Source: a virus (lineage: Duplodnaviria; Heunggongvirae; Uroviricota; Caudoviricetes). From it: a stretch of 4,163 nt of DNA. Every line of letters begins with the position of its first letter. Position 1 is the first letter of the stretch. This document shows, piece by piece, positions 126-4,069 of the stretch. A program made the translations under genes and the position numbers. The stretch is taken from the IMG/VR virus record IMGVR_UViG_2740892423_000018; one strand, written 5' to 3'. A model generated the notes under the pieces. It did not search any database. It was given only the letters and a program-made list of their open reading frames with translations, and was not told where the DNA came from.

Positions 126-467
126 ATGATTACTAAAAATTTCCGACTGAATGCGCTGGCGAATAAGTATGCGTCGGCACTGTATAACCACATTACCTCC
201 ACCAGCGGCGGGGACTATTTCATGGTTGATGCGGACGGCCTCGCCGTCCGTGTGGAAATCGTCAATGGAGTAAAAGGCGTTCGCAGCCTGATCGATAGCT
301 ACACACTGGCAGCCATGAAAGTGTTCTACCCGCAGTGGGAAACCGTGGGGATCGAGCTTCTTGATCGTTGCGTCACTAAGGACGGATTGACTGACGTCGG
401 GCGCGAGATATGGCAAAGCATGATTAATGATATGGGCGCGACCGTGGCAGGAGGCAACCATGCGTAA
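126..467 (+). CDS. hypothetical small protein (113 aa), translationally coupled to the downstream primase gene
   Basis: ATG at 126 preceded by GAGGA (114-118) at 7-nt spacing. Protein-like composition with no low-complexity runs. Stop TAA 465-467 overlaps the primase start ATG 460-462 (ATGCGTAA). Same strand as all neighbouring genes. No recognisable motif. Confidence 0.6.
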   Translation: MITKNFRLNALANKYASALYNHITSTSGGDYFMVDADGLAVRVEIVNGVKGVRSLIDSYTLAAMKVFYPQWETVGIELLDRCVTKDGLTDVGREIWQSMINDMGATVAGGNHA

Positions 468-3219
468 TATCGACCTTATCCGCGAAGTGACCAGCGCCGC
501 AGCAGGGCGCTGGCCTTATGTGCTGGCTGGATTGTCTATCGACGTGCCTGATTCATCGCGCCGCCATTCTCCATGCCCTGCATGTGGTGGAAAAGACCGT
601 TTCAGATTCGACGACAACGGGCGCGGTAGCTTTATCTGCAACCAGTGTGGCGCTGGTGACGGGCTGGATTTAATCAAGCGGGTTAACAACTGCGACACTA
701 CGGAGGCGGCACAGCTTGCCGCTGACGTGCTGGGTATTGATTACCGGGCAGCGCAAACCGACCCGGTGGCAGCGAGCCATAGAAGAGAGCAACTGGAAGC
801 TGACCGCCAGCAGCGTGAGCAGGAGCGCCAGAAACAGGCAGCAGAGGACGCAGAGCAGCGAAGGGCTACGTTTGCCCGTCTGTATGCCGGAATGCGCCAG
901 AGTGTCACACAGGGCGAATCTGATTACCTGCAATCAAAAGGGCTGACCGGGTTTAATTACCCGGTTATGTCTGATGGTTCGCTACTCCTGCCGCTGGTGG
1001 ATGAATCCGGCGCAGTAGTGGCGGCGCAGACCATCACGCCGCAGGGAGATAAACGACTCCTGACAGGTTCAGCAAAGCGCGGGGCATATCACGCCGTAAA
1101 CGCGCCAGAATCGCCGCAGAGCGTTTTAATTGCCGAGGGGCTGGCGACGGCCCTTTCAGTTCACCTGATGCGCCCGGACGCGCTGGCAGTGGCAGCAATT
1201 GACGCGGGCAACCTGCTACCCGTTGCCGAAGTGATGCGCCGGAAGTATCCACAGGCACAAATAATCATCGCCGCAGACAACGACCACCACCAAAACGGAG
1301 AAGCCAATACAGGCAGGGAGGCCGCAGAGAAAGCCGCCTTGTCCGTGGCTGGATGGGTGGCACTGCCGCCGACAGACTACAAAGCCGACTGGAACGACCA
1401 CCACCAGCAAAACGGGCTGGAAGTCGCTACGGCTGCGTTTAACGACTCGATGTACCAGATTCAAGGGGAAGCCGTTAAACCACGATTGCAGGCCATTGAG
1501 GGCGGTAAAACTGACCATCCAGAGAAAGACCCACTAAAACCCCACATTGAGAGCCGAAAAGATGGCGTTTTCTGGGTAACGCCGAAGGTGGACAAGGAAA
1601 GCGGGGAGATCATCAACGCTGAAAGCTGGTTATGTTCACCGTTGGAGGTTATCGGCACGGGACGCGACGACAAAGATCAGTATCTTATTATCTCATGGCT
1701 GGCATTCGGTGCAGGCATACGGACAACAGCGGCTATCCCGCTGGCTGATATTGGCGAGCGTGAAGGCTGGCGCACCCTGAAAGCTGGTGGCGTCAACGTC
1801 ACAACGAAAAACAGCCTACGGGCGATTCTTGCCGACTGGTTACAGCGAAGCGGCTCGCGTGAATTGTGGCGCGTTGCTCATGCTACAGGCTGGCAGTGTG
1901 GGGCATACATCATGCCGGACGGGGAAATCATCGGCACACCTCAGCGGCCTGTTTTGTTCAGCGGGCGCAGTTCAGCCGCTGCCGGGTATACCGTAGCAGG
2001 AACGCCTGAAAGCTGGCTTAACAGTGTTGCGCGGCTGGCATACGGCAACTACGCGATGATGACAGGCATCGCCGCAGCACTGGCAGCGCCATTAATCGGG
2101 GTGGCAGATCGTGACGGATTCGGAATTCATTTTTATGAGCAATCGAGCGCCGGGAAAACAACCACGCAGAACGTGGCGAGCAGTCTTTACGGCAACCCTG
2201 ATGCCTTGCGCCTGACGTGGTATGGGACGGCGCTGGGGCTGATAAACGAGGCCGCCGCCCACAATGACGGGCTGATGCCGCTGGATGAAGTCGGACAGGG
2301 CGCAGACCCGATAAGCGTTTCTCAGTCTGCCTATGCCCTGTTTAACGGCGTGGGGAAATTGCAGGGAGCAAAGGAAGGAGGCAACCGGGATCTGAAACGC
2401 TGGCGCACCGTGGCAATCAGCACCGGGGAAATGGATTTAGAAACGTTCATCGCCACCGCAGGACGCAAGACAAAAGCGGGGCAACTGGTGCGACTGCTGA
2501 ATATCCCGCTGAGTAAGGCGGTGCGCTTTCATGAGCACCAGACAGGGAAAGATCACGCCGACGCGCTGAAAGACGCTTACCAGCACCATCATGGCGCTGC
2601 CGGGCGGGAGTGGATTAGATGGCTTTCAGACCACCAGCAGCAGGCGATTGATGCCGTTCGTGAGTGTGAAGCCCGATGGCGAAGTCTAATCCCTGCTGAC
2701 TATGGGGAACAGGTTCACCGTGTAGGGGCGAGGTTCGCCATTCTGGAGGCCGCTTTACTGCTGGGTGGCGTGGTTACTGGCTGGGATGCTCAAACGTGCC
2801 GTGATGCGATACAGCACAGCTACAATGCGTGGTTGCGTGAGTTCGGCACGGGGAACAAAGAGCACCAGCAGATTATTGAGCAGACGGAGGCGTTTTTGAA
2901 TGCCTATGGGCTGAGTAGATTCGCGCCGCTGGGTTATGACCCGCGCGATTTACCCATCCGTGATTTAGCCGGGTACAGGAAGAAGGGGAACCACGACGGC
3001 GACCCGATAATTTTCTACACCTTCCCGGCAACATTTGAGCAGGAGATCGCACGGGGTTTTAATGTCAGGCAGTTTGCCGAAGTTCTCAAGAATGCAGGAA
3101 TGCTAACACCACCAACGAGCGGGCGAGGTTATCAGGGGCGGGTAAGGGAAGGAGGGCGGCAAATTCGCGTTTATGTGCTCAACTTCATGGATGAGGAAAG
3201 CAGCCAGCCAGAAGAATAA
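460..3219 (+). CDS. primase/helicase-like replication initiation protein: N-terminal Cys4 zinc ribbon + TOPRIM (DnaG/P4-alpha-type) primase core + C-terminal P-loop NTPase region
   Basis: Open frame 427-3219. Preferred start is ATG 460 (MRNIDLIREV...) because AGGAGG at 449-454 sits 5 nt upstream; the ATG at 427 has no SD and would overlap the upstream ORF by 41 nt. Zinc ribbon CPAC...CNQC encoded at nt 574-648. TOPRIM glutamate motif IAEGLATA (nt 1129-1152, resembling the EGYATA motif of P4 alpha and plasmid primases) and DxD motif IIAADNDHH (nt 1261-1287). Walker A-like SSAGKTTT (GKT at nt 2152-2160) and Walker B-like LMPLDEV (DE at nt 2284-2289). Stop TAA 3217-3219. Confidence 0.88.
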   Translation: MRNIDLIREVTSAAAGRWPYVLAGLSIDVPDSSRRHSPCPACGGKDRFRFDDNGRGSFICNQCGAGDGLDLIKRVNNCDTTEAAQLAADVLGIDYRAAQTDPVAASHRREQLEADRQQREQERQKQAAEDAEQRRATFARLYAGMRQSVTQGESDYLQSKGLTGFNYPVMSDGSLLLPLVDESGAVVAAQTITPQGDKRLLTGSAKRGAYHAVNAPESPQSVLIAEGLATALSVHLMRPDALAVAAIDAGNLLPVAEVMRRKYPQAQIIIAADNDHHQNGEANTGREAAEKAALSVAGWVALPPTDYKADWNDHHQQNGLEVATAAFNDSMYQIQGEAVKPRLQAIEGGKTDHPEKDPLKPHIESRKDGVFWVTPKVDKESGEIINAESWLCSPLEVIGTGRDDKDQYLIISWLAFGAGIRTTAAIPLADIGEREGWRTLKAGGVNVTTKNSLRAILADWLQRSGSRELWRVAHATGWQCGAYIMPDGEIIGTPQRPVLFSGRSSAAAGYTVAGTPESWLNSVARLAYGNYAMMTGIAAALAAPLIGVADRDGFGIHFYEQSSAGKTTTQNVASSLYGNPDALRLTWYGTALGLINEAAAHNDGLMPLDEVGQGADPISVSQSAYALFNGVGKLQGAKEGGNRDLKRWRTVAISTGEMDLETFIATAGRKTKAGQLVRLLNIPLSKAVRFHEHQTGKDHADALKDAYQHHHGAAGREWIRWLSDHQQQAIDAVRECEARWRSLIPADYGEQVHRVGARFAILEAALLLGGVVTGWDAQTCRDAIQHSYNAWLREFGTGNKEHQQIIEQTEAFLNAYGLSRFAPLGYDPRDLPIRDLAGYRKKGNHDGDPIIFYTFPATFEQEIARGFNVRQFAEVLKNAGMLTPPTSGRGYQGRVREGGRQIRVYVLNFMDEESSQPEE

Positions 3220-3244
3220 TCTTTTTTCACATACGTAGTTTTAG

Positions 3245-3271
3245 TGTTGTCTCTGTTGTCTTTGTTGTCTC
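3245..3271. repeat. left triple-iteron block TGTTGTCTC-TGTTGTCTT-TGTTGTCTC (left arm of a 27-bp inverted repeat)
   Basis: Three head-to-tail 9-mers. Exact reverse complement of 3478-3504. Confidence 0.85.
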
Positions 3272-3316
3272 ATTTTGTAAGTTACATTGATTTATAAGGA
3301 TTTTATTTTAATTTCT
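3272..3316. other. AT-rich tract between iteron groups; candidate DNA unwinding element
   Basis: attttgtaagttacattgatttataaggattttattttaatttct is strongly AT-biased and lies between the left triple block and the direct iterons. A second AT-rich tract (ctatttttgtttatatacaaaaaaat, ~3505-3530) follows the right block. Confidence 0.4.
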
Positions 3317-3410
3317 GAGACAACATTGAGACAACATTTAGCCATTTTGAGACAACAGGGCGAACGTGTGTTTTTAGTCCGGCAGGCAGTGAGACAACAT
3401 TTATGCCGGG

Positions 3411-3442
3411 TGAGACAACACGAAATTGCAAATGTTGTCTCA
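3411..3442. repeat. inverted repeat TGAGACAACA-(12 bp)-TGTTGTCTCA built from two iterons in opposite orientation
   Basis: Arms 3411-3420 and 3433-3442 are perfect reverse complements; spacer cgaaattgcaaa (3421-3432). Confidence 0.8.
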
Positions 3443-3477
3443 GCAAAACCCAGACGTGGCGCGGCCTGTAGAGCCGT

Positions 3478-3504
3478 GAGACAACAAAGACAACAGAGAC
3501 AACA
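3478..3504. repeat. right triple-iteron block GAGACAACA-AAGACAACA-GAGACAACA (right arm of the 27-bp inverted repeat)
   Basis: Exact reverse complement of 3245-3271, including the variant middle unit. Confidence 0.85.
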
Positions 3505-3607
3505 CTATTTTTGTTTATATACAAAAAAATCTGGCGAAGGTGTCCCACAATAAGACGGTGCCGGGCAATCTTCATTAGCAAAACTAATAATTCGAGGTAT
3601 TCGCAAA

Positions 3608-4069
3608 ATGACAGCACAGATATCAGCCTACGGGCGGCTGGTGGCAGATCCCCAGACCAGAACGACAAACAGCGGCGGCAGCATGACAATGGGGCGTTTA
3701 GCGGTGGCACTGCCTTGCCATGCAGCAGAGGGCGGAGAGGTTACTTTCTGGCTGGGCGTGGTGGCATTCGGCAAACAGGCCGACGCACTGGCAGGACACG
3801 TTAAAGGCGATTTAGTCAGTGTTGCCGGAGCGATGCAGGTCAATCAGTGGGCGGGCAAGGATGGCGGTACACAGCAGGGGTATCAGGTAGTAGCCGACAG
3901 CGTGATCAGCGCCAGAACGGTACGCCCCGGCGGGAAGCGGGCCGAGTCAGTCAAAGCAAGTGGAGCCAGCAGGGGCCACGAAACGCAATCCGCGCCGGGA
4001 TGGGAGCTATATAACACCCCTGATGATTTTGACCAGCGCCCACCATTCGACGATGAAACGCCATTCTGA
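3608..4069 (+). CDS. ssb: single-stranded DNA-binding protein (SSB-like OB fold with acidic C-terminal tip)
   Basis: 153 aa. N-terminal region aligns by eye with E. coli SSB: ISAYGRLVADPQTRTTNSGG vs [20 protein letters not shown], and WLGVVAFGKQADALAGHVKGDLVSVAGAMQVNQW vs [35 protein letters not shown]. Gly/Ser/Pro-rich linker, then tail ...DDFDQRPPFDDETPF resembling the SSB tip DDDIPF. GAGG at 3594-3597 lies 10 nt upstream of ATG 3608. Stop TGA 4067-4069. Confidence 0.82.
   Translation: MTAQISAYGRLVADPQTRTTNSGGSMTMGRLAVALPCHAAEGGEVTFWLGVVAFGKQADALAGHVKGDLVSVAGAMQVNQWAGKDGGTQQGYQVVADSVISARTVRPGGKRAESVKASGASRGHETQSAPGWELYNTPDDFDQRPPFDDETPF

Follow-up and report, generated by a model that had tools for sequence, protein, structure and literature searches.

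In the pathogenicity islands of Staphylococcus aureus (SaPIs) and Gram-negative phage-inducible chromosomal islands (PICIs), the replication origin is made of iterons that follow rep directly on its 3' side and flank an AT-rich region in opposite orientation (PMC9371898, PMC6092414). Cch and SaPIbov1-type Rep are MCM-like helicases of superfamily 6 (SF6), and SaPI1 Rep and SaPI5 PriRep belong to SF3 (PMC9371898). The pri-rep-ori region of the Gram-negative island EcCICFT073 drives plasmid replication (PMC6092414), and EcCIMP1 of E. coli MP1 is excised and transferred by phage Kapi1 (PMC11773190). Here we describe a 4,163-nt stretch of DNA (the window) from IMG/VR virus record IMGVR_UViG_2740892423_000018, which encodes a 919-aa fusion of a primase with an initiator helicase. 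We consider it very probable that this gene is the Pri-Rep of a PICI-type satellite and that the 290 bp behind it are the cognate replication origin.

Domain architecture and fold of the protein

A preliminary description, made from the sequence alone, had proposed a zinc ribbon, a TOPRIM primase and a P-loop NTPase in one polypeptide. Pfam gives all three domains as Zn_Ribbon_Prim, Toprim_3 and DUF927 (aa 367–645, E 7.3e-49), and all three matches are far over the gathering thresholds (for DUF927, 167.4 bits vs a cut-off of 22.6). The motifs on which that proposal was built are all present: CPAC at aa 39–42, CNQC at 60–63, IAEGLATA at 224–231, DNDHH at 273–277, SSAGKTTT at 562–569 and LMPLDEV at 605–611. 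The protein has a full-length match to PHROG 1139, 'DNA primase' (aa 16–912, E 1e-177), and 1903 homologs were found with E ≤ 1e-10. Public annotation already records this fusion of domains, usually as "TOPRIM and DUF927 domain-containing protein". The start codon is ATG 460, as in the gene calls on identical loci. The gene and its parts, in window coordinates, are the following, where pLDDT is the predicted local distance difference test score.

427–3219, plus strand: open reading frame (ORF), the one long ORF on this strand of the window, from the ORF list
448–452, plus strand: ribosome-binding site GGAGG, 7 nt before ATG 460, read from the sequence
460–3219, plus strand: Pri-Rep gene, 919-aa primase/initiator-helicase fusion, stop codon included (ORF, Pfam, PHROG 1139)
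478–1452, plus strand: primase module, aa 7–331, homologous to P4 alpha's N-terminal third (BLASTP; Klebsiella comparison)
559–666, plus strand: primase zinc ribbon, aa 34–69, CPAC...CNQC (Pfam Zn_Ribbon_Prim, E 1.4e-15)
1123–1416, plus strand: TOPRIM domain, aa 222–319, with E226 (IAEGLATA) and D273/D275 (DNDHH) (Pfam Toprim_3, E 8.6e-15)
1543–1959, plus strand: beta-rich N-terminal domain of the helicase, aa ~362–500 (AlphaFold2 pLDDT >93; within the whole-chain match to Cch and SaPIbov1 Rep)
2005–2514, plus strand: AAA+/P-loop ATPase core, aa ~516–685 (Pfam DUF927, AlphaFold2 secondary structure, Foldseek)
2137–2160, plus strand: Walker A EQSSAGKT, aa 560–567 (K566 in 72/72 and G565 in 70/72 diverse members)
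2272–2289, plus strand: Walker B LMPLDE, aa 605–610 (D609 in 71/72, E610 in 72/72)
2419–2430, plus strand: S-T-G-E, aa 654–657 (S654, G656 and E657 in 72/72), ending the core beta strand aa 650–656 of the AlphaFold2 model
2491–2493, plus strand: R678 (AGQxVRL), candidate arginine finger (R in 72/72)
2545–2907, plus strand: all-helical domain, aa ~696–816, between ATPase core and winged helix (AlphaFold2 helices, fragment residues 357–477)
2917–3204, plus strand: C-terminal winged-helix domain, aa ~820–915, putatively recognising iterons, with G893 (nt 3136–3138) in the first wing strand

To place the helicase part, aa 340–919 were modelled with AlphaFold2 on 72 diverse homologs (pLDDT 94.4; predicted template modelling score, pTM, 0.90). 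Foldseek matched this model over ~580 aligned columns to Cch of the staphylococcal cassette chromosome SCCmec (5dgk; template modelling score, TM, 0.69–0.78; E 1e-24) and over a similar ~580 columns to SaPIbov1 Rep (8tch; TM 0.60–0.71; E 2e-21). The next matches, NrS-1 helicase, BrxL, MCM and ComM, were far behind. At the level of sequence, the helicase part matched the SaPIbov1 "initiation of replication protein with helicase activity" (8tch, E 5e-7) and SCCmec Cch (5dgk), and NCBIfam gave a weak match to SCCmec Cch1. As modelled, the helicase two-thirds of the protein is thus of the MCM-like self-loading initiator type of SCCmec Cch and SaPIbov1 Rep, not of the D5/SF3 type. When aa 340–919 were searched against 1.84 billion cluster representatives, 9609 relatives were returned, 2281 of them at E ≤ 1e-30. 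Most of the best-scoring full-length matches align as a single stretch that reaches the C-terminus, so the C-terminal region is integral to this helicase family.

The S654-T-G-E657 motif would occupy a sensor-1-like position, and R678, which comes after the strand that this motif ends, may by analogy serve as the arginine finger. Homology to characterised SaPI and SCCmec proteins predicts that the protein forms hexamers, loads itself and unwinds with 3'-5' polarity; primase activity is predicted on the same grounds. The GKT at aa 349–351 was also considered as a P-loop and rejected, as it sits in a low-confidence linker (pLDDT 42, residues 1–10 of the modelled fragment).

The ~300 residues after the Walker B motif had been described as lacking any recognisable motif. 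They do hold recognisable parts: S654-T-G-E657 and R678, both invariant and belonging to the AAA+ core, and the helical domain. Beyond these, aa ~820–915 form a compact domain with helix-helix-wing topology in the AlphaFold2 model, and this winged-helix domain modelled alone gave a pLDDT of 90.8. The preliminary description had suggested comparing this end of the protein with the origin-binding domain of P4 alpha. The fold searches with the C-terminal domain (CTD) returned domains of SaPIbov1 Rep, TcpK and Cch; the P4 alpha domain was not returned, and its presence in the searched libraries was not verified.

The probable origin behind the gene

Iterons are present directly behind the gene, in the ~290 bp that follow the Pri-Rep stop codon. 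This intergenic region is the GC minimum of the window (0.40). Twelve exact copies of AGACAACA occur within 3245–3504, vs 0.13 expected, and none of 200 shuffles reached 12. The origin is composed as follows.

3245–3272, minus strand: left iteron array, three tandem copies of (T)GAGACAACA with a 9-bp period and GACAAC cores at 3246, 3255 and 3264 (repeat search)
3273–3317, no strand: AT-rich spacer, 75–85% A+T in 20-nt windows, putative melting site
3317–3442, plus strand: central iterons, five direct copies of TGAGACAACA with cores at 3319, 3330, 3351, 3393 and 3414, and one inverted copy (3434)
3440–3478: GC-rich segment of the origin
3477–3504, plus strand: right iteron array, three direct tandem copies with a 9-bp period and cores at 3480, 3489 and 3498 (repeat search)
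3505–3531, no strand: second short AT-rich stretch, at the right origin edge

The right and left arrays form an inverted repeat with 54-nt arms that are 80% complementary. This is the same organisation as in the origins of SaPIs and Gram-negative PICIs, and origins of this type were already described in 2018. The starts of the direct central iterons are 11, 21, 42 and 21 nt apart, which is about whole helical turns. The two spacings, whole turns in the centre and a 9-bp period in the flanking triples, may represent two binding modes.

A promoter and terminator scan of 3150–3700 gave nothing over shuffle expectation. An Rfam scan of the window at a permissive threshold gave no RNA family, and so no P4-like CI/seqA immunity RNA. 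Two ORFs that overlap the origin, at 3287–3553 (plus strand, 88 aa) and 3303–3710 (minus strand, 135 aa), were rejected as genes as they are uncalled on identical loci; their repetitive translations (VRQ... and VVS...) arise from the iterons.

Iteron variation and the C-terminal domain

To learn how the repeats vary, we fetched 80 genomic loci with relatives of the protein at 51–99% identity, of which 73 were usable. Most of these have one 8-mer that is repeated 4–13 times in the 450 nt behind the Pri-Rep gene, and elsewhere in the ~4.7-kb locus this 8-mer is mostly either missing or present once or twice; locus L020 is an exception. The iteron differs by lineage, with TGAGACAAC in 11 loci, TGAACCAAC in 28, TGAACCGAC in nine, TAACCCGT in four and about ten other types. 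Relatives that are 80–87% identical and carry a different iteron have an identity of 0.68–0.77 over the last ~110 residues, vs 0.90–0.96 for those with the same iteron, and elsewhere in the protein the two groups are equally similar.

We then asked which part of the protein co-varies with the iteron. For all 1953 sequence pairs, the identity of a given region was regressed on that of the remaining protein, with a permutation p value. Identity of aa 810–919 was associated with a shared iteron class (+0.105, p ≤ 0.0005). This was the only such region, and no association was seen for the N-terminal domain (–0.026), the ATPase core (–0.010) or the helical domain (+0.009). Because the co-variation is limited to aa 810–919, it supports a C-terminal iteron-binding domain, as had been proposed, of ~110 residues and not the ~300 first suggested.

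In the alignment, the wing has class-specific sequences. Position 893 separates the two largest classes, being G in 9/10 of the GAGACAAC-type proteins and R in 28/28 of the GAACCAAC-type proteins. The DUF927 lineage has a dozen or more variants of the iteron, all with the form TGnnCnnAC, and they track changes in the wing (for example, G893 with GAGACAAC vs R893 with GAACCAAC). These data point to the winged-helix domain, aa ~820–915, as the part that would recognise the iterons.

The island and its distribution

One metagenome contig matches the window with 100% identity, and three NCBI genomes match it at 99.98%. The identical loci lie in islands of ~12.6 kb, measured from int to the last island gene, at two sites: one adjoins proA and the other is between yicC and dinD. 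The gene order is integrase, DUF6387 or a hypothetical protein, AlpA, a hypothetical protein, AntA, DUF4222, Ash, four or five small ORFs, Pri-Rep, ori, single-strand DNA-binding protein (SSB), PerC, a hypothetical protein and PRiA4_ORF3. The core island genes are all on one strand, including Phage_integrase, Phage_AlpA and Pri-Rep. The order primase, ori, SSB, PerC is kept in EcCICFT073 and other islands. Within the window, the gene behind the origin is the following.

3608–4069, plus strand: single-strand DNA-binding protein gene, 153 aa (Pfam SSB, E 5e-14; NCBIfam; PHROG 44)

Several features by which Gram-negative PICIs have been defined (PMC6092414) are present here. The islands have int, alpA and pri(-rep) in one direction, an iteron/AT-rich origin, a small size (~10–15 kb) and a specific attachment site, and they have no called lysis or structural genes. 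A protein of this kind had been taken as a mark of a satellite or island replicon. This holds, both in the int-AlpA-...-Pri-Rep-ori-SSB-PerC order of the islands and in the 79% identical protein of EcCIMP1, a PICI that is mobilised. The module is widespread. Among complete E. coli genomes, 388 of 5426 carry a match, and relatives of Pri-Rep at 86–94% identity span Klebsiella, Enterobacter, Salmonella, Citrobacter and others.

The alternative that survives best is that the replicon is an integrative plasmid-like element or a remnant prophage, and that the protein is its phage- or plasmid-type replication protein. In its favour, PHROG 1139 groups phage proteins and a homolog bears the name 'primase helicase [Caudoviricetes sp.]'; against it, the window had no megablast match in 50,697 phage records, no phage record holds at least 80% of the Pri-Rep protein, and the full-length protein is absent from the records of cultured phages. 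The helicase part occurs at 67% identity in the 106-kb Klebsiella phage P12620-1 (PQ569648.1, 106.5 kb), where a 'hypothetical protein' at 99050–100753 matches aa 350–912 and lacks the primase module. Related elements have been deposited as 17–22 kb circular 'plasmids', and packaging genes are not recognisable in the island; however, the gene content, order, direction and ~12.6-kb size match Gram-negative PICIs, including Ash/Icd, and the close relative EcCIMP1 needs phage Kapi1 for excision and transfer (PMC11773190). We regard a plasmid-like or prophage origin of the replicon as unlikely. It also concerns the host element only and leaves the mechanism of the protein and its origin unchanged.

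Some of the related records deserve mention. A 17,779-bp circular element of Raoultella ornithinolytica (pB3.H1.26.c19, our locus L002) was deposited as a small non-mobilisable plasmid. With tblastn it shows an int-like gene, AntA, DUF4222, Ash, Pri-Rep, SSB, PerC and PRiA4_ORF3 in order, and it has GAGACAAC iterons at 9273–9515. It has the look of a circularised island, not of a plasmid, and its Pri-Rep frame is split into many fragments, probably by sequencing errors. The Klebsiella records CP031370.2, CP031371.2 and NZ_CP033626.1 (19–23 kb), also deposited as small plasmids, match the window. An 86%-identical homolog with enterobacterial-type iterons is found in CACSKA010000004.1, which is labelled Chryseobacterium sp. 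18061 (Bacteroidota); this assembly may be contaminated or mislabelled.

Two neighbours of the module were also noted. A 113-aa ORF at 126–467 (plus strand) overlaps the Pri-Rep start by 8 nt, which suggests translational coupling. This ORF has no Pfam or NCBIfam match; it matches PHROG 37628 (E 7e-49), a family of unknown function. It is kept directly upstream of Pri-Rep in the identical islands, and a homolog is also in the Raoultella circular element. On the other side, a gene for a PerC-family regulator follows SSB in the source islands, just beyond the window (13622–13933 in locus L086). PerC homologs on PICIs have a reported effect on virulence gene expression from LEE (the enterocyte effacement locus) (PMC11773190).

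The Walker A glutamate

The Walker A motif had been called atypical for a glutamate at its first position. This is E560. Among the 72 diverse members, this position is G in 56/72 and E in 4/72. Among 73 enterobacterial relatives it is E in 41, G in 14, A in 13, Q in four and D in one, while the neighbouring S-S/T-x-G-K-T/S-T stays fixed.

A glutamate in place of the canonical first glycine could mean that the ATPase is degenerate and that the protein is only a primase and origin-binding initiator that recruits host DnaB. However, K566, T567, D609, E610, S654/G656/E657 and R678 are all kept, and no part of the protein is more conserved than the ATPase core (0.9–1.0 identity among close relatives). 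The EQSSAGKT P-loop is shared by the protein of the mobilisable EcCIMP1, and the range of residues at position 560 in relatives fits tolerance and not decay. From its variability in the clade, its fixed neighbours and the strong conservation of the core, E560 is most simply read as a tolerated, clade-wide substitution and not as a sign of an inactive ATPase. We therefore rejected an inactive ATPase on conservation grounds and consider the degenerate-ATPase explanation very improbable.

The primase module and its exchange

The N-terminal third of the protein is related to the alpha protein of phage P4. In BLASTP, aa 7–331 align with aa 5–311 of P4 alpha at 35% identity (E 7e-45), and the TOPRIM motifs IAEGLATA and D-x-D align with IAEGYATA and ADRD. 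After aa 331 there is no similarity. The P4 alpha helicase consists of D5_N, DUF5906 and Pox_D5 (SF3) domains, and none of the three was detected by Pfam search in the 919-aa protein. The preliminary description had called the protein functionally analogous to P4 alpha and longer than its 777 aa. That length is correct and the logic is the same, but only the primase part is homologous and the helicase is of another type; the extra length is due to this different helicase and not to an added domain. Judged by sequence, the protein would work like P4 alpha, and it is a member of that family only in the primase third.

The two systems are alike in that one chain combines primase, helicase and origin binding, in that the zinc ribbon and TOPRIM domains are homologous over ~330 aa, and in that repeat-bearing cis-acting DNA (the crr region in P4) lies directly behind the gene. 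They differ in the helicase, SF3 with D5_N/DUF5906/Pox_D5 in P4 vs DUF927/MCM-like here, and in the repeats. A true P4-alpha-family protein of a P4-like satellite, with TOPRIM, D5/SF3 helicase and Pox_D5-type origin-binding domain, would share the related N-terminal third and the repeats behind the gene, but it is extremely unlikely and already contradicted for the helicase and origin-binding part, given where the similarity ends, the missing D5-type domains, the match of aa 340–919 to Cch and SaPIbov1 Rep, the CTD searches described above (with the same reservation on the libraries) and the lack of sid, psu, delta and epsilon homologs among the called island genes.

One Klebsiella island carries this primase module with the other kind of helicase. 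The 814-aa primase of the island on plasmid pVA126-339 is 88% identical to our protein over residues 1–350, and then similarity stops abruptly. The rest consists of D5_N, DUF5906 and Pox_D5, and the downstream repeats are TATCCCTAC. Thus, the primase module was kept while the initiator helicase and the origin were exchanged together. We tentatively propose that helicase, CTD and ori form an exchangeable specificity cassette, in which the same primase can be joined to an MCM-like initiator with TGAGACAACA or to a D5-type initiator with TATCCCTAC. Should a few wing residues really set the choice of iteron, nature would have provided in this family a series of mutually orthogonal pairs of initiator and origin. 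The likely driver would then be incompatibility between satellites present in one cell, and it would be possible to read the recognition code and re-engineer it.

The pVA126-339 island (K. pneumoniae, 293307–308594) is PICI-like and is located on a 339-kb plasmid, not on the chromosome. It has int, AlpA, AntA, DUF4222, Icd, primase, SSB and PerC, followed by a tape measure protein. Separately, homology in most of the E. coli matches (97.5% identity) sets in right at the start codon, nt 460; SW07096 is the only genome in which the 113-aa ORF upstream is matched as well. This edge of homology at nt 460 suggests that the replication module starts at a recombination boundary.

Proposed mechanism and significance

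Several observations weigh against a PICI-type Pri-Rep with its cognate origin. No packaging, capsid-remodelling, terminase or structural gene is recognisable among the called island genes, and a helper-dependent satellite status is suggested by analogy with EcCIMP1. The EcCICFT073 Pri-Rep, which is the experimentally tested Gram-negative one, gave no similarity in BLASTP and is not a homolog. In the literature we found no biochemical or genetic test of this protein or of any Gram-negative DUF927-type Pri-Rep. About 8 of the 73 loci are without clear iterons, some of them with pseudogenes or frameshifts. The co-variation test handles relatedness through regression on the rest of the protein and not through a phylogenetic model. 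Finally, E560 in place of the first P-loop glycine could alter nucleotide binding.

If the gene is a PICI-type Pri-Rep and the DNA behind it its origin, replication could proceed as follows. The C-terminal winged helix (aa ~820–915) would recognise the TGAGACAACA iterons that flank the AT-rich stretch. The MCM-like AAA+ part (aa ~360–816) would then load itself with no separate loader, forming rings to either side of the AT-rich DNA, and the rings would melt this DNA and unwind it with ATP. The tethered zinc-ribbon/TOPRIM primase of P4-alpha type (aa 1–~330) would lay primers for the host polymerase, and the island's own SSB, encoded next door, would coat the single strands.

On this account, a complete replication module of initiator-helicase-primase, origin and SSB has been located for a widespread satellite-type island of enterobacteria that occurs in many genera. 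The module suggests that Gram-negative islands use the MCM-like self-loading initiator type of SaPIbov1 and SCCmec, fused to a P4-type primase. What is added here is the assignment to the Cch/SaPIbov1-Rep lineage, the map of the origin, the localisation of specificity to the last ~110 residues and the evidence for cassette exchange. The gains are modest, namely better annotation, a defined origin and a testable map of the ~110 origin-choosing residues. This is an ordinary Pri-Rep and ori module, correctly identified, and current understanding is not overturned.

Comparison with known systems

Synteny in EcCICFT073 is the same (Icd-like, DUF4222, primase, ori, SSB, PerC); the Pri-Rep of that island differs in being a 584-aa, D5-type protein without TOPRIM that is followed by CTGTCTACC-type iterons. 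EcCIMP1 is much closer. It has a 79% identical 918-aa protein with the same EQSSAGKT and shares the island layout and origin architecture. By contrast with our locus, its iterons are TGAACCAAC and position 893 is R instead of G.

SaPI5 PriRep5, known from cryo-electron microscopy (PMC9371898), is likewise a fusion of a primase with a self-loading initiator helicase; its CTD is needed for replication and iterons lie behind the gene. The ATPases of PriRep5 and Rep1, however, are classed as SF3 and not SF6 (PMC9371898), and PriRep1 (7pds) matched the aa 340–919 model weakly (TM 0.33–0.40). The iterons of SaPIs are penta- or hexanucleotides (PMC9371898), vs 9–10 bp here.

The closest likeness in fold is to Cch and SaPIbov1 Rep. 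Sequence identity to these proteins is only 14–17%, the first Walker A residue is E here and G there, and our protein belongs to a Gram-negative host and island lineage. The matched chains are helicase-only (~580–600 aa), whereas here a P4-type zinc-ribbon/TOPRIM primase is fused N-terminally. Even so, the N-terminal domain, AAA+ core, helical domain and winged-helix CTD all share their fold (TM 0.60–0.78), and a short-iteron origin around an AT-rich centre lies directly 3' of the gene, as it does in SaPIs (PMC9371898).

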